29,878 bases of DNA from a virus. Taxonomy: Duplodnaviria; Heunggongvirae; Uroviricota; Caudoviricetes. Positions 18,225 through 26,590 of this stretch are shown here, one piece after another. Both the position numbers and the translations under genes were made by a program. The stretch lies in the IMG/VR virus record IMGVR_UViG_2675903394_000003; one strand, 5' to 3'. How positions within the stretch are numbered: the stretch's first letter is position 1; the number at the start of each line of letters is the position of its first letter. The notes below the pieces were generated by a model, which did not search any database, was not told where the DNA came from, and saw nothing but the letters and a program-made list of their open reading frames with translations.

Positions 18225-19997
18225 ATGACCATCACCACAGACACCACTCTTTTACACGACCCGCGTCGTCAGGCGGCGCTGCTGTACTGGCAGGGATTTT
18301 CCGTGCCGCAGATTGCCGCCATGTTGCAGATGAAACGCCCGACGGTGCAGAGCTGGAAACAGCGCGACGGCTGGGACAGCGTTGCCCCCATCAGCCGTGT
18401 CGAAATGAGCCTGGAAGCGCGGCTGACCCAGCTCATCATCAAACCGCAGAAAACCGGCGGTGACTTCAAGGAAATTGACCTGCTGGGACGCCAGATTGAA
18501 CGACTGGCACGGGTAAATCGCTACAGCCAGACCGGCAACGAGGCAGACCTTAATCCGAACGTCGCTAACCGCAACAAAGGCGGGCGGCGCAAACCGAAAA
18601 AGAATTTTTTCAGTGACGAAGCCATCGAAAAGCTGGAGCAGATTTTCTTTGAGCAGTCTTTCGACTATCAGTTGCACTGGTATCGCGCCGGGCTTGAGCA
18701 CCGCATCCGCGATATCCTGAAATCCCGCCAGATTGGCGCGACATTTTATTTTTCCCGCGAGGCGCTGCTGCGCGCCCTGAAAACCGGTCATAACCAGATT
18801 TTTCTGTCGGCCAGTAAAACGCAGGCGTATGTGTTCCGCGAATACATCATCGCCTTTGCCCGTCTGGTTGACGTTGACCTGACCGGTGACCCGATTGTCC
18901 TGGGCAATAACGGCGCAAAACTGATTTTTCTCGGCACCAACTCCAACACCGCGCAGAGCCATAACGGCGACCTGTACGTCGACGAGATTTTCTGGATCCC
19001 GAATTTTCAGGTACTGCGTAAGGTGGCATCAGGTATGGCCTCACAGAGTCACCTGCGTTCGACCTATTTCTCCACCCCGTCCACGCTGGCGCACGACGCC
19101 TACCCGTTCTGGTCGGGTGAACTGTATAACCGGGGACGCGCCAGCGCCGCCGAACGCGTGGAAATCGACGTCAGTCATAACGCCCTTGCCGGTGGGCTTC
19201 TCTGTGCGGACGGCCAGTGGCGACAGATTGTCACCATTGAGGACGCCCTGAAAGGTGGCTGCACGCTGTTCGACATTGAGCAGCTCAAACGCGAAAACAG
19301 CGCCGACGATTTTAAAAACCTGTTCATGTGTGAATTTGTTGACGACAAGGCGTCGGTGTTCCCGTTCGAGGAGCTGCAACGCTGCATGGTCGACACGCTG
19401 GAAGAATGGGAAGACTATGCACCCTTTGCCGCCAATCCGTTCGGCTCCCGCCCGGTATGGATTGGTTACGACCCGTCACACCGTGGCGACAGTGCCGGAT
19501 GCGTGGTGCTGGCACCGCCGGTGGTGGCCGGTGGCAAATTCAGAATACTTGAGCGTCACCAGTGGAAAGGCATGGACTTTGCCACTCAGGCGGAATCCAT
19601 CCGCAAACTCACCGAAAAATACAACGTCGAATACATCGGTATTGATGCCACTGGCCTCGGTGTCGGCGTGTTCCAGCTCGTGCGCTCGTTCTATCCCGCC
19701 GCGCGCGACATCCGCTACACGCCGGAAATGAAAACCGCAATGGTGCTCAAGGCAAAAGACGTTATCCGCCGAGGCTGTCTGGAATATGACGTCAGCGCCA
19801 CCGACATCACCAGCTCGTTTATGGCTATCCGCAAGACCATGACCAGCAGCGGACGCAGTGCCACCTATGAGGCCAGCCGCAGCGAGGAAGCCAGCCACGC
19901 CGACCTCGCCTGGGCGACCATGCATGCCCTGTTAAATGAGCCACTCACCGCCGGTATCAGCACCCCGCTGACATCCACCATTCTGGAGTTTTACTGA
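18225..19997 (+). CDS. P: Terminase ATPase (large) subunit P, 590 aa
   Basis: Start at ATG 18225 (MTITTDTTLLHDPRRQ) preceded by GAGGT; the track start at 18195 is a TTG; length as P2 gpP. Confidence 0.92.
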   Translation: MTITTDTTLLHDPRRQAALLYWQGFSVPQIAAMLQMKRPTVQSWKQRDGWDSVAPISRVEMSLEARLTQLIIKPQKTGGDFKEIDLLGRQIERLARVNRYSQTGNEADLNPNVANRNKGGRRKPKKNFFSDEAIEKLEQIFFEQSFDYQLHWYRAGLEHRIRDILKSRQIGATFYFSREALLRALKTGHNQIFLSASKTQAYVFREYIIAFARLVDVDLTGDPIVLGNNGAKLIFLGTNSNTAQSHNGDLYVDEIFWIPNFQVLRKVASGMASQSHLRSTYFSTPSTLAHDAYPFWSGELYNRGRASAAERVEIDVSHNALAGGLLCADGQWRQIVTIEDALKGGCTLFDIEQLKRENSADDFKNLFMCEFVDDKASVFPFEELQRCMVDTLEEWEDYAPFAANPFGSRPVWIGYDPSHRGDSAGCVVLAPPVVAGGKFRILERHQWKGMDFATQAESIRKLTEKYNVEYIGIDATGLGVGVFQLVRSFYPAARDIRYTPEMKTAMVLKAKDVIRRGCLEYDVSATDITSSFMAIRKTMTSSGRSATYEASRSEEASHADLAWATMHALLNEPLTAGISTPLTSTILEFY

Positions 19998-21031
19998 TGA
20001 GCAAGAAAAAAGGGAAAACACCGCAGCCAGCGGTGAAAACAATGACCGCCAGCGCCCCGAAAATGGAGGCATTCACCTTTGGTGAGCCGGTGCCGGTACT
20101 CGACCGCCGTGACATTCTGGATTACGTCGAGTGCATCAGTAACGGCAGATGGTATGAGCCACCGGTCAGCTTTACCGGTCTGGCAAAAAGCCTGCGTGCT
20201 GCCGTGCATCACAGCTCACCGATTTACGTCAAACGTAATATTCTGGCCTCAACATTTATCCCGCATCCGTGGCTTTCTCAGCAGGATTTCAGCCGCTTTG
20301 TGCTGGATTTTCTGGTGTTCGGTAATGCGTTTCTGGAAAAGCGTTACAGCACCACCGGTAAGGTCATCAGACTGGAAACCTCACCGGCAAAATATACCCG
20401 CCGTGGCGTGGAGGAGGATGTTTACTGGTGGGTGCCGTCCTTCAACGAGCCGACAGCCTTCGCGCCCGGCTCCGTGTTTCACCTGCTGGAGCCGGATATT
20501 AATCAGGAGCTGTACGGCCTGCCGGAATATCTCAGCGCCCTTAACTCTGCCTGGCTGAATGAGTCGGCCACGCTGTTCCGCCGCAAGTATTACGAAAACG
20601 GCGCTCATGCCGGATATATCATGTACGTCACCGATGCCGTGCAGGATCGCAACGATATCGAAATGCTTCGCGAAAACATGGTGAAGTCGAAAGGCCGCAA
20701 TAACTTTAAAAATCTGTTTCTCTATGCCCCACAGGGGAAAGCCGACGGCATTAAAATTATCCCCCTCAGTGAAGTGGCAACGAAGGACGATTTTTTTAAT
20801 ATCAAAAAAGCCAGTGCCGCTGACCTGCTGGACGCACACCGCATCCCTTTTCAGTTGATGGGCGGCAAGCCGGAGAACGTCGGGTCGTTGGGTGATATTG
20901 AGAAAGTGGCAAAGGTCTTTGTCCGCAATGAGCTTATCCCGTTACAGGACAGGATCCGCGAGATAAACGGCTGGCTCGGTCAGGAGGTCATCCGCTTTAA
21001 AAACTACTCACTGGACACTGACAACGGCTGA
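19997..21031 (+). CDS. Q: Portal (capsid vertex) protein Q, 344 aa
   Basis: ATGA overlap with the P stop; length as P2 gpQ. Confidence 0.93.
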   Translation: MSKKKGKTPQPAVKTMTASAPKMEAFTFGEPVPVLDRRDILDYVECISNGRWYEPPVSFTGLAKSLRAAVHHSSPIYVKRNILASTFIPHPWLSQQDFSRFVLDFLVFGNAFLEKRYSTTGKVIRLETSPAKYTRRGVEEDVYWWVPSFNEPTAFAPGSVFHLLEPDINQELYGLPEYLSALNSAWLNESATLFRRKYYENGAHAGYIMYVTDAVQDRNDIEMLRENMVKSKGRNNFKNLFLYAPQGKADGIKIIPLSEVATKDDFFNIKKASAADLLDAHRIPFQLMGGKPENVGSLGDIEKVAKVFVRNELIPLQDRIREINGWLGQEVIRFKNYSLDTDNG

Positions 21032-21200: not shown

Positions 21201-21219
21201 GTGCTTTCCCCGCCTCGCC
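21201..21219. other. cos: cos site (19-nt cohesive end, intact as expected in a prophage)
   Basis: GTGCTTTCCCCGCCTCGCC is the reverse complement of GGCGAGGCGGGGAAAGCAC, which I recall as the P2 cohesive end; it lies between Q and the accessory region as in P2. Confidence 0.8.
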
Positions 21220-21242: not shown

Positions 21243-21425
21243 AATGCAGTTGCACGAACAATCCAGATTCGCGCCAGCTCTGACAATATACTGTCAGAGC
21301 AAGCACGTCTGACGCATGCAAAAAAATGCATCTTTTGTATGCAATGCAGAAATCAAACAAATTTGAGTATAAATTAACGATGAGTCCTATGATTTTTAAC
21401 TTCATCCCTAGCAGTTAACAGCAAA

Positions 21426-22361
21426 TTAAAAGTCTTTATCTGCCTGATACTGCCCTGAACAGTAGTAACAACGATACTCAACATCACCATCATCCATTGG
21501 CCAAATGCTCATTTCGCTGCTGGGAGCCTGCGCACCACAACAATCGCAAGCAACATCAATATCATCACTATCTTCATTCTGACAAAAAGTGCATTTGTAA
21601 CCCGTAGAAGACTCATCAGAGGGAATCATTGTGTCGTTAGAACACTCAGGACATTCATAAACTTTCCAATCGACCAATTCATAAAATTTATGCCTAACCC
21701 CATAAAAAGCTTCAGCCTCTCTTTCTTCAACTTCTTTCTTGGCTTCAGAGAGCCGATGAGAGTATTCATCAGCTAAAGTTTGAAATATCTGTAAGTTATC
21801 TGCACCGACTTCATCTTCAAGATTAAAAAGATCGAAGATATCAATAAACTCAGCTACCCCCCGGACGAGGCGTCCAATACACAAGCGCGCGTCTTTAGGA
21901 GTAAGTCTGAATTGATAATGCTCAATATCATTTCTTAAATTCTTTATCCAAGCTATATCATTACAAAAATCAATATCTACAAAATCAACCCCAGTTATGC
22001 CGCATTTCTCACACTTAGCAAAGTTTAGTGCCTGATCTAAGGTTATCGTATATGGCTTAGATTTCCCTTCAATGAACCTTCCTAAATCAACGCCATCCTC
22101 GATAATTTTATTATATGCGTCTAAAAGACTGATTGATTCTTGCTTTGCTCTTGTAGCTATTTGTTTATAGCAATCGGAATACAGTAAATTTTCATCTACT
22201 GTAACAATATATAACTTCAACACCAGCTCAAGAAAATGTGACAAATGCAAGATAGCAAATTTATATTGCCGCAATTCTCCTCTCTGCCCTAACTCATACT
22301 TCGCTAAAGCTTCATTAAAACTATCAATAGCATTCTCTTGTAAATCCAGTTGATATTCCAT
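21426..22361 (-). CDS. Hypothetical cysteine-rich protein (311 aa from the preferred start) with an R-x4-H HEPN-like motif and C-terminal CxxC pairs; candidate defence-associated protein
   Basis: Long ORF in AT-rich cargo; preferred start is the ATG at 22359-22361, preceded by AGGTGA, while the track start at 22406 has no RBS; motif LRNDIEHY at nt 21918-21935; CPEC...CTFC and CDCC...CYYC at nt 21459-21653. Confidence 0.7.
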   Translation of the reverse strand: MEYQLDLQENAIDSFNEALAKYELGQRGELRQYKFAILHLSHFLELVLKLYIVTVDENLLYSDCYKQIATRAKQESISLLDAYNKIIEDGVDLGRFIEGKSKPYTITLDQALNFAKCEKCGITGVDFVDIDFCNDIAWIKNLRNDIEHYQFRLTPKDARLCIGRLVRGVAEFIDIFDLFNLEDEVGADNLQIFQTLADEYSHRLSEAKKEVEEREAEAFYGVRHKFYELVDWKVYECPECSNDTMIPSDESSTGYKCTFCQNEDSDDIDVACDCCGAQAPSSEMSIWPMDDGDVEYRCYYCSGQYQADKDF

Positions 22362-22426
22362 TACATCACCTAAAAAATTCATATTTATATGAGTGCAGAA
22401 AACCATTCAGCACTCATTGCTTATAA

Positions 22427-23158
22427 TCAATTATCTAATATTGATACAACCTCTCCCGTTCGTATGTCGACGCGCGCAGCTATAGTCTGCTTAACCACTC
22501 CACCATAAGCATTAGTACCGCGAAACGTAGTTTTCACAATAGCGTACGGGTCTTTATTCAAAACCAAATGATATACCGTTGACACATGTTTATAAGATGA
22601 ATCATCGTTCATATTATCTTTAATTAGTTTTTCCAATGGACGATAAGAACCATCCCAACCACTAAAATTACTCTGAAATGTATCAAGATTGATTTTATTG
22701 TTTAGTGAATTCGGGTCATTTTCATAATCATTAAAGCACCACCCAAGAACATCACCGAGTTTCAACTCATCATCTTTGGTAAATGTATACTCACTCATGC
22801 AGGCATAAAACGCATCTGACGCGGTGGCTGGAACTTCCTTAAAATCAATGTAACTATTCACAATATCGTGTCGTGTTTTCTTTGACTCGTTCCGATATTC
22901 CTTGAGTGTTTTTTCACCATATTCGAATGTTTTTTGGACTTTGTGTTCTGCAACGGTTGATGTTTCAGTTTTAGCAACTGGCTGGCTTTTTTCTGTTGGA
23001 TAGAGTATTGAACCAATTATGCTCAATACAAAACCTCCTCCGAGATAAACCGCACTTGCACGTTTGCGGTTTGGCATTCGCACCAGTGATGGCTTGATTA
23101 ACCCGATGAAGAAAGCAACGAAAAAAGCGAGTGATAGAAAAGCGATTATAGTATCCAT
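22427..23158 (-). CDS. Hypothetical membrane protein (243 aa from the preferred start) with two N-terminal TM helices and a ~180-aa C-terminal domain
   Basis: Hydrophobic segments IIAFLSLAFFVAFFIGLI and AVYLGGGFVLSIIGSILY separated by the basic loop KPSLVRMPNRKRAS; preferred start is the ATG at 23156-23158, preceded by AAGGA; AT-rich. Confidence 0.7.
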   Translation of the reverse strand: MDTIIAFLSLAFFVAFFIGLIKPSLVRMPNRKRASAVYLGGGFVLSIIGSILYPTEKSQPVAKTETSTVAEHKVQKTFEYGEKTLKEYRNESKKTRHDIVNSYIDFKEVPATASDAFYACMSEYTFTKDDELKLGDVLGWCFNDYENDPNSLNNKINLDTFQSNFSGWDGSYRPLEKLIKDNMNDDSSYKHVSTVYHLVLNKDPYAIVKTTFRGTNAYGGVVKQTIAARVDIRTGEVVSILDN

Positions 23159-23381
23159 AGCTATCCTTTTTGCATCATCCACATAAAAAATCGACCTCAT
23201 GTTAGCAACAGGATGCTTACTTTTGAATATTTGTAAGTTGTTGGCTCTCCAACCTAACTCCTTTCAACCGTCAAAAACCGGCACCAACGCAGTAAAAATA
23301 TGTCTGTCAACTAACGCCTCGCTTCGCTCGTTGTTCAACCCCGCCAGCCCTGAAAACAAGTTTCACGACTGGCGGCGTTCT

Positions 23382-23588
23382 CTATCGTCTGCGTGGTGGT
23401 GGCGTAACTCTTGATTGACCGATATGATTAAACCGCCCGTAATTATCCCGGACTATTTCGGCACACCCGACCAGCTCATCGGGCGTCATATTTTCGTTGA
23501 CCATAATCCGCTGTAAACGCTGAACAATAGCCATCAGCTTGATATTTTTAGTTTTATGGTGCGGTATCTCGCCTGGTATTCTGTGCAT
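23382..23588 (-). CDS. Hypothetical small protein (68 aa)
   Basis: ATG at 23586-23588 overlaps the upstream stop as TAATG (translational coupling); the track ORF start at 23600 is a GTG. Confidence 0.45.
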   Translation of the reverse strand: MHRIPGEIPHHKTKNIKLMAIVQRLQRIMVNENMTPDELVGCAEIVRDNYGRFNHIGQSRVTPPPRRR

Positions 23589-24043
23589 TATCCAAGCCAC
23601 CCGTTTTGCTGTGCACGCTCCATCTGTTCATCTGAATAGTTCCATGCTCCATCCGTGGCAACCATTGCCCCGCCAGACATCCCCGTCTCTGGTTCATACA
23701 TAACAGCAAGGCCGAGCTGATGCATAATTTCATGATTAATTCTGAATACCAGACCACGCTCACTAAGTTCTTTCCAGTTCACAATCTCATATGCGCCTGT
23801 ATTAAGCAGCTCAATACTTAGCAAGACATAATCTTCCAGCCAGTCTGACAGGTCAGTAACATCTGTTATCCGGGCTTCAACCTTTCGCCCCGTATACACA
23901 CCCTGCACCCATTCATGCAAAATCAACGTGTCCCCGTGCTCATAATTACGGTCATTTTTCCGAAACTCTGCGCGTTTCTTTCCTTCCAGCACAAGGTCGA
24001 AATATTTTGCGTGCAGCTTTACCTCGTGAATTTTTGCCATCAT
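23588..24043 (-). CDS. ASCH/DUF3850-like (PUA-fold) protein, about 151 aa
   Basis: N-terminal MAKIHEVKLHAKYFDLVLEGKKRAEFRKNDRNYEHGDTLILHEW resembles the DUF3850/ASCH signature as I remember it; ATG at 24041-24043 overlaps the A stop and is preceded by GGAG. Confidence 0.6.
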   Translation of the reverse strand: MMAKIHEVKLHAKYFDLVLEGKKRAEFRKNDRNYEHGDTLILHEWVQGVYTGRKVEARITDVTDLSDWLEDYVLLSIELLNTGAYEIVNWKELSERGLVFRINHEIMHQLGLAVMYEPETGMSGGAMVATDGAWNYSDEQMERAQQNGWLG

Positions 24044-26325
24044 CTCCACTCCATTACTGTTGAGAATCCCGGCCACTCATCAGCGACCGGATACGTGAAT
24101 TTTTTCCCGTCATAATTTACAGTCGCGCCACGCGCCAGCGCCTCAAGCTCCCATCGCTGCGGCCTGATACCGTTCTGAGCAAGGTCAACGCGGATACGGG
24201 TAATTTGCATTCGTTCCGACCGGGTCAGTCTGGCCGATGGCGCTATTTCATGCGGTTTTAACGGGCTTCCGGCTCTTTGCTGACGATTTGGTGTTCTCAG
24301 GCCGTGTTTTAATGCGCCCCTGAGCGCCCTCACGACCTCCGGGTCATTCCATTCGATAACACCGTCATCAACCAGATTAAGCACTGCTGCGGCGTGTTCA
24401 GAAGGTGTGGGAGCCGGTAACGAAGCATCACTGCTGGCAGGCTTTCCACAGTTATTGACAGGACTCCGAGGCGCGGCGATGCCGCTTTTTAAAGTCAAAG
24501 GCTCCACGACCGGAACTTTCGGCACAATGCGCCAGTCCGTCGTTCTGGTGATATGAATATGACGCGCGCCGAGATGCGGCGCGTAAATGCCGACCACTCT
24601 CTCGACCTCTTCCTCGTACTCGTTAACGTCATCCGACGGGCTACGGGCGACCCTGACAGTCTGACAATCGCGCGGGACATTTGCCCCACCCTGCGCGCTG
24701 ATATACAACGCAAAATCACCACTGTCTGCGGCGGCGCGTGCAGCCTCGACGCGCTCGTCAAACTCATCAGCAATGCTGACGCCGCGCGGCAATTTGCGTA
24801 GTTCACGGTAAGCCCCCATTGTCGGCAGACCAACCGTTTTAAATTGCGGGATGCGCCACGTTGACGCCCATGCAGTAACAGCCGCGGCAGTATCTTTCAG
24901 CGGTCTGCCGGTATCGTTATCGAGCTGACCATCCAGTGCATAGCCGTCGATGTTTTTTGAGATGTATTTCGCGATATACCCCGCAGCACCACCCCGATTA
25001 AGGTGTTTTGCCTGAAAACGGTTTCGCGCGGCTCCTCTTTCGTCGCCATCCTCTTTGAGCGCATAGCGACGCATGATTTCGATAATCTGGTTACGCTGGC
25101 GTGGATTACAAAAAAGCATCATATGCCAGTGCGGCGTTCCGTCGTGGTGTGGCTCGACGACTCGCAAACCGTAGACCTGTAAATCATTATCCTTGAATGC
25201 CGTGCGCATCAGGCTCCAGATACGGCAGAGATATCGCTGCGCATCCTTTGGATTAAATGCCTCATCATTCCAGCCGTGATTAAGCTGGACGGTTTTACTT
25301 TCGCCTTTTCCGACCTGACGTGTCGGGTGATACTTTGACGGTGCGGTCAGCGTGATAAACATCCCCACATCACCCTCTGCGGCGGCGTAACGCTCAATAC
25401 CGGCGATGGTGTTCATCAGCTCCATCCGGCGAATTTCAGGATTAGAAATACTGCCCATCACCTTACTGATAAGGTCGATGCGCTCGCCGGTTTCCCTGTT
25501 TTCAAGGTCACACGATTTAAGAAATTCCAGATTTGCCTGGCGGCGTGCACGCACATCCCGAATGGCATGTTTACTGGCATAAGGAGAACGGTCTTTATTG
25601 ACCTCCCCGACAGCTATCAGTAACGCCTCATGCCAGCGCATACGCTGGCCTTTAAGCTGATGAGTCCACCACTCATCGTTAAACAGGCGGGCAATGGCAG
25701 AATATGCCTGCCTCGTGGTCATCTGTCCTTTACGGTATTTTTTCCAGTAGAGAGGGGAAATATTGAAAGCACGTGCAGCGCCAGCAACATGACCATAGAG
25801 GTGAGCCTGCGCCTCATCCGTAAACAGCGATTCTTTCTCGCCATGCGCATCCACCCAGGCATCGCAGAGTTCCTCATACATCATGAAAAGCTGCGATGAA
25901 ATACGGGCGGCAAACTTTTTCAGCTCCTTGTCATTCATTCCAGGCAGGCGCGCATAGTGGTCGCGCTCTGCCAGAAACAGCAACGACGCGTCGGTGTTCA
26001 TTTCATGGCGCTGATTCACGCGCTCAATGCGCGGCCATAAACGACGCTGAAAAGTGGATGTGAGGAAATAAAACCCGTGCACCGGGCTTTTATTGCGCCG
26101 GATGTAGTCATAGCGTGAAGTAAACAGCGAGCGCAAAAAGTAAGGCAGGCGGTTAATCGTGGATAAAACACCTTGCACCTGACGCATCTCGTCACGTGTA
26201 AGGGGTCTTTCGCGCCCGACAGCCTCGCGTGGCGCGTTCCATGCATAAGCACCGGTAAACATCTTACCGGTGCCTGCGGCAAATGCTGACGGAGGGACAA
26301 AACGCCCGGAGGCTTTAACGGCCAT
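24040..26325 (-). CDS. A: Replication initiation protein A (rolling-circle nickase), 761 aa
   Basis: Start at MAVKASGRFVPP (ATG 26323-26325) gives the P2 gpA length; the track start at 26367 is a TTG. Confidence 0.92.
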   Translation of the reverse strand: MAVKASGRFVPPSAFAAGTGKMFTGAYAWNAPREAVGRERPLTRDEMRQVQGVLSTINRLPYFLRSLFTSRYDYIRRNKSPVHGFYFLTSTFQRRLWPRIERVNQRHEMNTDASLLFLAERDHYARLPGMNDKELKKFAARISSQLFMMYEELCDAWVDAHGEKESLFTDEAQAHLYGHVAGAARAFNISPLYWKKYRKGQMTTRQAYSAIARLFNDEWWTHQLKGQRMRWHEALLIAVGEVNKDRSPYASKHAIRDVRARRQANLEFLKSCDLENRETGERIDLISKVMGSISNPEIRRMELMNTIAGIERYAAAEGDVGMFITLTAPSKYHPTRQVGKGESKTVQLNHGWNDEAFNPKDAQRYLCRIWSLMRTAFKDNDLQVYGLRVVEPHHDGTPHWHMMLFCNPRQRNQIIEIMRRYALKEDGDERGAARNRFQAKHLNRGGAAGYIAKYISKNIDGYALDGQLDNDTGRPLKDTAAAVTAWASTWRIPQFKTVGLPTMGAYRELRKLPRGVSIADEFDERVEAARAAADSGDFALYISAQGGANVPRDCQTVRVARSPSDDVNEYEEEVERVVGIYAPHLGARHIHITRTTDWRIVPKVPVVEPLTLKSGIAAPRSPVNNCGKPASSDASLPAPTPSEHAAAVLNLVDDGVIEWNDPEVVRALRGALKHGLRTPNRQQRAGSPLKPHEIAPSARLTRSERMQITRIRVDLAQNGIRPQRWELEALARGATVNYDGKKFTYPVADEWPGFSTVMEWR

Positions 26326-26590
26326 ATGAGCCAAAAGCCTCTGAACAACGCTTGCTGAGTTGTTCAACCTGCGCGTTTAAATCAGCAAAAGATTTTGCGC
26401 TTCCGGTCAGAATATCGTGATGCATCAGGCCGGAAACGAGCTGGCTTAATTTCGGGTAATAACCAACCACCGCCAGCCATTCCTGACCGGCGTTTTTACC
26501 GCTTTCAGCTCTCTTTTTCTCGTGGAGAATAAACTGAAAGCTGTCACTGGTAACGACATAACGTTCGCCAATTTCAATACGAATACTCAT
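26315..26590 (-). CDS. Early-operon hypothetical protein (orf83-like), 91 aa
   Basis: ATG confirmed; overlaps the A start; position as P2 orf83. Confidence 0.7.
   Translation of the reverse strand: MSIRIEIGERYVVTSDSFQFILHEKKRAESGKNAGQEWLAVVGYYPKLSQLVSGLMHHDILTGSAKSFADLNAQVEQLSKRCSEAFGSYGR

Follow-up and report, generated by a model that had tools for sequence, protein, structure and literature searches.

A candidate stand-alone defence ribonuclease with a HEPN domain and a two-zinc module in the cos-proximal hotspot of a P2-like prophage

Introduction

What is the function of a gene for a 'hypothetical protein' that lies next to the cohesive-end site of a P2-like prophage? The gene in question is located at positions 21426..22361 (minus strand, stop codon included) of IMG/VR record IMGVR_UViG_2675903394_000003, a stretch of 29,878 nucleotides that was analyzed in full and is referred to below as the window. 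Its product is listed in RefSeq as WP_004099450.1 of E. coli GN04171. The interval between gpA and gpQ by cos is a defence hotspot of P2-like phages, in which P2 itself carries old and tin (PMC9122126).

A preliminary description of the gene, made from its sequence, read the residues LRNDIEHY as the signature of a HEPN ribonuclease and the C-terminal cysteines as two zinc ribbons, and suggested that such a fusion would fit a defence effector. Here, we compare the protein with its homologues and with known defence systems, and describe its genomic setting. We consider it likely that the gene encodes a stand-alone defence ribonuclease, consisting of a HEPN domain and a zinc module and carried as cargo in the cos-proximal hotspot.

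Results

The gene and its homologues

The open reading frame encodes a protein of 311 residues, and its coding sequence of 936 nt has the same extent in RefSeq. A search of 5.8 billion proteins yielded 128 homologues, mainly from Gamma- and Betaproteobacteria, down to approximately 35% identity. We prefer the start codon at 22361, because an AGGTGA Shine-Dalgarno sequence, read from the sequence, is present 4 nt before this ATG (22366..22371, minus strand), the RefSeq coding sequence starts at the same position and most homologues are approximately 311 residues long. A second in-frame ATG at 22406, giving a product of 326 residues, is probably not used. With the start at 22361, LRNDIEHY is found at residues 142-149 as described, and the codons for R143 to H148 were checked by hand at 21918-21935.

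The N-terminal HEPN domain

In the structural model, residues 1-175 (21837..22361, minus strand) form a four-helix up-down bundle with helices at residues 7-26, 31-55, 130-147 and 155-175. A family-specific insert (residues 57-129) separates helices 2 and 3, a place where inserts are common in HEPN domains (PMC3710099). The predicted catalytic R-x4-H motif, R143-N-D-I-E-H148 (21918..21935, minus strand), is located at the end of helix 3. In the typical layout of HEPN motifs the arginine is followed by a polar residue and helix 2 contributes an acidic residue, often within E-x3-[KR] (PMC3710099); the protein has N144 directly after R143, and E45-L-V-L-K49 on helix 2 (22215..22229, minus strand). 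The model agrees with this layout at each point, and we regard a HEPN fold for the N-terminal domain as almost certain.

Direct searches were less informative. Nothing significant was found with the protein itself in Pfam, NCBIfam or the PDB sequences, weak matches to NrdD and zinc fingers reflected only the CxxC spacing, and the score against the Pfam DUF3644 model was under the reporting threshold. A Foldseek search of the full model against the PDB gave no full-length match (best E 0.79). Among 70 relatives, 29 matched DUF3644 and a few matched other HEPN models.

An R-x4-H motif by itself proves nothing, as we estimate that approximately 0.3 are expected by chance in a protein of this size; it is the conservation among homologues that raises it above chance. 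We counted the conservation of these residues and of the cysteines in the 117 homologues of at least 260 residues, and made a separate alignment of 70 sequences. R143 is conserved in 116 of the 117 homologues and H148 in all of them, nearly all share the consensus R-N-x-I-E-H-[Y/F/H], and N144 is present in at least 90%. In the alignment of 70 sequences, neither E45 nor K49 varies. The preliminary description had let the HEPN assignment depend on a HEPN-like four-helix core and on retention of the arginine and histidine among homologues, and both are found.

Two of its details did not hold. The tyrosine next to the histidine had been compared to that of HepT, but the residue after H148 varies between Y, F and H and sits at +1 instead of the +2 of the HepT motif R-x4-H-x-Y. 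Membership of HepT-MntA was rejected, since this tyrosine is absent and no nucleotidyltransferase (MNT) gene is adjacent. A cluster CEKC...C at residues 117-133, which had been listed as a further group of cysteines, is present in the protein, but C117, C120 and C133 are conserved in only 50%, 79% and 30% of the homologues; these residues are therefore ruled out as a third metal site.

The linker and the two-zinc module

The HEPN domain is followed by a helical linker (residues 176-230; 21672..21836, minus strand), with a long helix at approximately residues 187-219 in the AlphaFold2 models, and by two predicted zinc sites. The first, C237-x2-C240...C257-x2-C260 (21582..21653, minus strand), forms beta-hairpins in the models and has a conserved TMIP...SSTGY between its two pairs, CPEC (237-240) and CTFC (257-260). 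The second, C272-x2-C275...C298-x2-C301 (21459..21548, minus strand), is made up of CDCC (272-275) and CYYC (298-301). The four C-terminal CxxC pairs are thus present as first described, with the immaterial correction that the spacers measure 16 residues rather than 17 between CPEC and CTFC, and 22 rather than approximately 21 between CDCC and CYYC.

Residues C237, C240, C257, C260 and C275 are invariant in the 117 homologues and C272 and C298 are conserved in 99%, compared with 62% for C301. As 90 of the 117 homologues have four CxxC pairs within their last 95 residues, the lower value for C301 probably results in part from an alignment shift. Overall, conservation in the family is highest in the HEPN core and at the first zinc site, with greater variation in the insert, the linker and the second zinc site.

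An exhaustive profile search retrieved 920 cluster representatives at E<=1e-3, of which 309 at E<=1e-10. Among the relatives are two proteins of approximately 440 residues (P0363 and P0381) in which a PIN_8 nuclease domain, taking the place of HEPN, precedes the same linker and two-zinc module; a fragment (P0345) also carries the PIN_8-linked module. The PIN_8 relatives retain the signature CPEC...TMIP...SxTGYxCT[FY]CxNEESD. Because the same module is fused to HEPN and to PIN_8, we treat the linker and zinc module as a discrete unit that occurs with two different ribonuclease-type effectors, and the domain arrangements point to swapping of effectors on a common C-terminal module.

A separate case is P0305 (238 residues), which has the zinc module of the family fused to an N-terminal part that, in our reading of the sequence, resembles a fragment of HsdS from a type I restriction-modification system. 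Truncation or fusion of a copy embedded in such a system is its probable origin.

Relation to PDC-S64 and HEC-08

The protein matches the PADLOC model of PDC-S64 (PDLC05059) with an E-value of 1.6e-17 and 61.5 bits, without application of the PADLOC coverage cut-offs. The match to the 339-position model occurs in 2-3 separate stretches, which makes the protein a peripheral member of the family. All 70 relatives tested also match PDC-S64 (best E 3.8e-32). PDC-S64, a single-gene candidate, is one of 145 phage defence candidates from a guilt-by-embedding screen (bioRxiv 10.1101/2024.01.29.577857).

The same preprint describes HEC-08 of E. coli ECOR52 (WP_001313577.1, 366 residues), an Hma-embedded protein in which several zinc-finger-like elements come after a DUF3644 HEPN domain. 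HEC-08 lowers plaquing and loses its defence activity upon mutation of H128 (bioRxiv 10.1101/2024.01.29.577857). We took its sequence from Table S2 of the preprint, collected its family and aligned 47 members for profile-profile comparison. With hhalign, our family aligns to the HEC-08 family over 220 columns with a probability of 95.3% and an E-value of 2.3e-8, at 19% identity over the aligned columns. The alignment pairs NAIDSF with NGLDFL, ELVLK with EILLK (E45 and K49 with E56 and K60 of HEC-08), R143 with R123 and H148 with H128, and continues through the first zinc site. The HEC-08 family alignment is needed for the link to be clear, as hhalign and hmmsearch comparisons with the lone HEC-08 sequence were too weak to decide.

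Many HEC-08 homologues (P0122-P0240) are named 'hsdR' by NCBI, although they are HEPN and zinc-finger proteins of approximately 366 residues. This annotation seems to derive from the restriction or Hma loci in which their genes lie.

Location in the prophage

The window contains genes for a terminase, portal protein, gpA and integrase, and represents a P2-like prophage. The HEPN gene lies between the gene for portal protein gpQ (19997..21031, plus strand; Pfam Phage_portal and RefSeq annotation) and that for replication protein gpA (24040..26367, minus strand; Pfam Phage_GPA, E 3e-124), the two boundaries of the hotspot. Its stop codon is approximately 200 bp from the 19-mer GGCGAGGCGGGGAAAGCAC (21201..21219, minus strand), which we take to be the P2 cohesive-end sequence; the match is exact, with 0 expected by chance.

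Other genes occupy the same slot in related phages, and 186-like prophages, one of them in Enterobacter, contain homologues with 81-83% identity there. The gene has the hallmarks of hotspot cargo: it lies between gpA and gpQ, close to cos, and occupies a slot whose contents vary. The guanine-cytosine (GC) content is 34-40% across 21400-23200 and 52-58% in the flanks, as expected for acquired cargo. Of 5,426 complete E. coli genomes, a single one carries the gene, and a tblastn search with the protein against 50,697 phage records gave no match.

Genomic neighbourhoods

For 85 loci from different species we clustered the open reading frames within 3.5 kb by BLASTP. The largest neighbour family, integrase-like, occurs in 9 of the 85 loci and none is commoner, so we consider the gene a single-gene system with no obligatory partner. 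In five of the loci (L074, L075, L077, L078 and L080) the homologue, of approximately 270-314 residues, is embedded in an Hma system, flanked by HmaA and HmaB and in the same orientation; AbiLi or AbiLii is embedded as well in three of these loci. Other relatives adjoin AbiL, PifA, Lamassu (Cap4 nuclease and SMC), AIPR or Mrr, and further settings include an island resembling an integrative and conjugative element (ICE), the end of an inovirus prophage and an element with a serine recombinase.

Other features of the hotspot

The low-GC stretch also contains, immediately upstream of the HEPN gene, a gene for an Orf97-like protein of 243 residues (22427-23158, minus strand; longest open reading frame to 23200). 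The protein has two N-terminal hydrophobic segments and matches phrog_3403 (unknown function), with no match in Pfam or PADLOC. It is 77% identical between the two lineages compared (P2/186-type contexts). We treat it as an independent neighbour rather than an obligatory partner: it is present in 33 records of P2/186-like phages (of Yersinia, Salmonella, Vibrio, Erwinia, Aeromonas and others) that all lack the HEPN gene, and it is absent beside all relatives of the HEPN gene outside P2/186-type prophages. A role of its own in superinfection exclusion or defence is conceivable. The protein is unrelated to the product of the DtrJ-like gene upstream of a Klebsiella homologue.

At the inner edge of the hotspot, just after gpA, we noted a gene for an orf91-like protein (23588-24076, minus strand) with DUF3850/ASCH and DUF7415 domains; in PADLOC it has only a weak match to PDC-M11B (E 0.022). 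An inverted repeat with the core GCTCTGACA-N6-TGTCAGAGC is found at 21270-21307, in the gap from the HEPN stop codon to cos. No T-run follows it; it could form a hairpin like that of a terminator or serve as a site for protein binding.

Discussion

The evidence described above can be accommodated in a simple scheme. HEPN domains generally cleave RNA, and HEPN ribonucleases use composite active sites. The DUF3644-type HEPN domain (residues 1-175) would provide a metal-independent endoribonuclease site, formed by R143-N144-x3-H148 together with E45 and K49. With composite active sites and a single HEPN domain per chain, the active enzyme is predicted to be a homodimer. The two Cys4 zinc sites, arranged in a compact module, would most likely control the nuclease, either by sensing a cue of infection or by binding the RNA substrate. 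Upon infection by a competing phage or mobile element, the ribonuclease may cut RNA of the host or of the invader and in this way block replication of the invader, possibly through abortive infection. Competing phages would then be excluded from the lysogen. That the HEPN domain cleaves RNA we infer from general knowledge of such domains and from the effect of the H128 mutation in HEC-08.

A role in defence for the combination of HEPN domain and zinc module, as first suggested for this protein, appears quite likely, given its homology to PDC-S64 and HEC-08 and its genomic context. Several observations weigh against this interpretation. The best stretch of the PDC-S64 match spans only residues 4-87 of the protein, and a structural comparison of the zinc module gave no informative match. 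Our literature search retrieved no paper mentioning PDC-S64 and no experiment on this protein or on PDC-S64. The evidence for HEC-08 was released as a preprint, and the homology to HEC-08 is no more than remote: the protein does not match the HEC-08 hidden Markov model at E<=1, and just two of the 70 relatives do so (E 5.5e-4). Based on these sequence comparisons, we call it a relative of HEC-08 and not a member of that family. In addition, the signal from a promoter scan was no higher than the shuffled background. Finally, the Orf97-like gene is also found immediately upstream of the homologue in two 186-like prophages, making a two-gene unit in the P2/186 lineage conceivable.

Instead of an abortive-infection ribonuclease directed at phages, the protein could be a HEPN-based defence against non-phage elements such as plasmids. 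A precedent is Ishtar (Ist1/Ist2) of Acinetobacter baumannii, a single-gene system that is present in integrons and P4 satellites and rids cells of plasmid RP4 while killing few of them; its proteins have an N-terminal HEPN domain (DUF4145 or DUF3644) and a C-terminal domain whose function is unknown (bioRxiv 10.64898/2026.07.06.735840). In line with such a role, one relative is located in the ICE-like island by TraG-D_C and DtrJ-like genes. However, membership of Ishtar was rejected, as none of the signature strings of our family occurs in the Ishtar homologue Table S3 and the entries examined are shorter (approximately 175-250 residues) and lack the zinc-site cysteines. Furthermore, HEC-08, the closest relative that has been tested, is anti-phage, and the prophage hotspot typically serves competition between phages (PMC9122126). 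We consider an anti-plasmid function unlikely.

The gene could instead encode the toxin of a toxin-antitoxin or addiction module that stabilizes the prophage, with the Orf97-like membrane protein or the toxin's own zinc module as antidote. This we find quite improbable, in view of the phage records that have the Orf97-like gene alone, the relatives that occur without it, the lack of a conserved neighbour family, and the absence of both an adjacent MNT gene and the HepT tyrosine. We consider it very improbable that the HEPN protein lacks catalytic activity or a role in defence, acting for example as an RNA- or nucleotide-binding regulator of the phage life cycle. Some HEPN domains are indeed non-catalytic (PMC3710099), and one relative lacks the arginine: P0090 of A. 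baumannii (L010, 3128-4042), the sole family member with a tryptophan for R143 (GVWNAIEH), which also counts against the reading that we favour. P0090, whose gene is located downstream of, and adjacent to, one for an Mrr_cat restriction endonuclease, may lack activity or rely on a different residue. Against a loss of catalysis, the set formed by R, N, H and E-x3-K is almost invariant across a family that diverges to approximately 35% identity. The scarcity of the gene, in phage records as well as E. coli genomes, indicates that it does not serve a core P2 function, and the relatives in non-phage islands and inside Hma systems also argue against a phage regulator. A defence ribonuclease is the explanation that we favour.

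The fusion of the same C-terminal unit to HEPN and to PIN_8 domains leads us to the tentative suggestion that the linker and two-zinc module could be a portable control or targeting domain, traded between unrelated ribonuclease effectors. If what the module recognizes is one conserved cue or substrate (for example, a feature of the ribosome or tRNA, or a common phage product), the module would define a broader class of zinc-module-guided ribonuclease defences. As the module is shared with PIN_8 nucleases, it offers a route to study how single-gene ribonuclease defences are controlled. No new principle is revealed by the gene as such; as it comes from a prophage of E. coli, it can be tested directly in this host.

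Comparison with known systems

The architecture has been recognized before. The EC042_2821/DUF3644 family, in which an Rx4-6H motif is conserved, was placed in the HEPN superfamily in a study that also reported its fusion to zinc ribbon (ZnR) domains and its presence in restriction-modification operons (Anantharaman et al., 2013; PMC3710099). The protein described here has the same motif and type of fusion, and is linked to DUF3644 through the 29 of 70 relatives that match the model, while itself scoring below the threshold. The 2013 description was computational and assigned no function to the HEPN-ZnR architecture.

PDC-S64 is likewise a single-gene, defence-associated family that is at times embedded in other systems; in contrast, the copy described here resides in a prophage hotspot and not in a BREX, DISARM or type I restriction-modification system. 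HEC-08 resembles the protein in having an N-terminal DUF3644-type HEPN domain with RNxxxH, C-terminal zinc CxxC pairs, a single gene and aligned catalytic residues. Five relatives of our protein also hold the niche of HEC-08 between HmaA and HmaB, whereas the niche of the protein itself differs. The C-terminal halves differ as well, with approximately 16 invariant cysteines in the HEC-08 family and 7-8 in ours. Ishtar is similar in consisting of a single gene, in joining an N-terminal HEPN domain to a C-terminal domain and in its presence on mobile elements; it differs in having a beta/alpha C-terminal domain that lacks zinc sites and in its tested activity, which is plasmid loss, not phage defence.

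The protein is unrelated to P2 Old, an ATPase-Toprim nuclease, and to Tin. The gene does share with old and tin, exclusion genes expressed in the lysogen, the position between gpA and gpQ by cos (PMC9122126). Our analysis extends the cargo known from the cos-proximal defence hotspot of P2 by a gene for a HEPN domain with a zinc module, and links three things that were previously separate: the PDC-S64 candidate family, the experimentally supported HEC-08 and the niche embedded in Hma systems.
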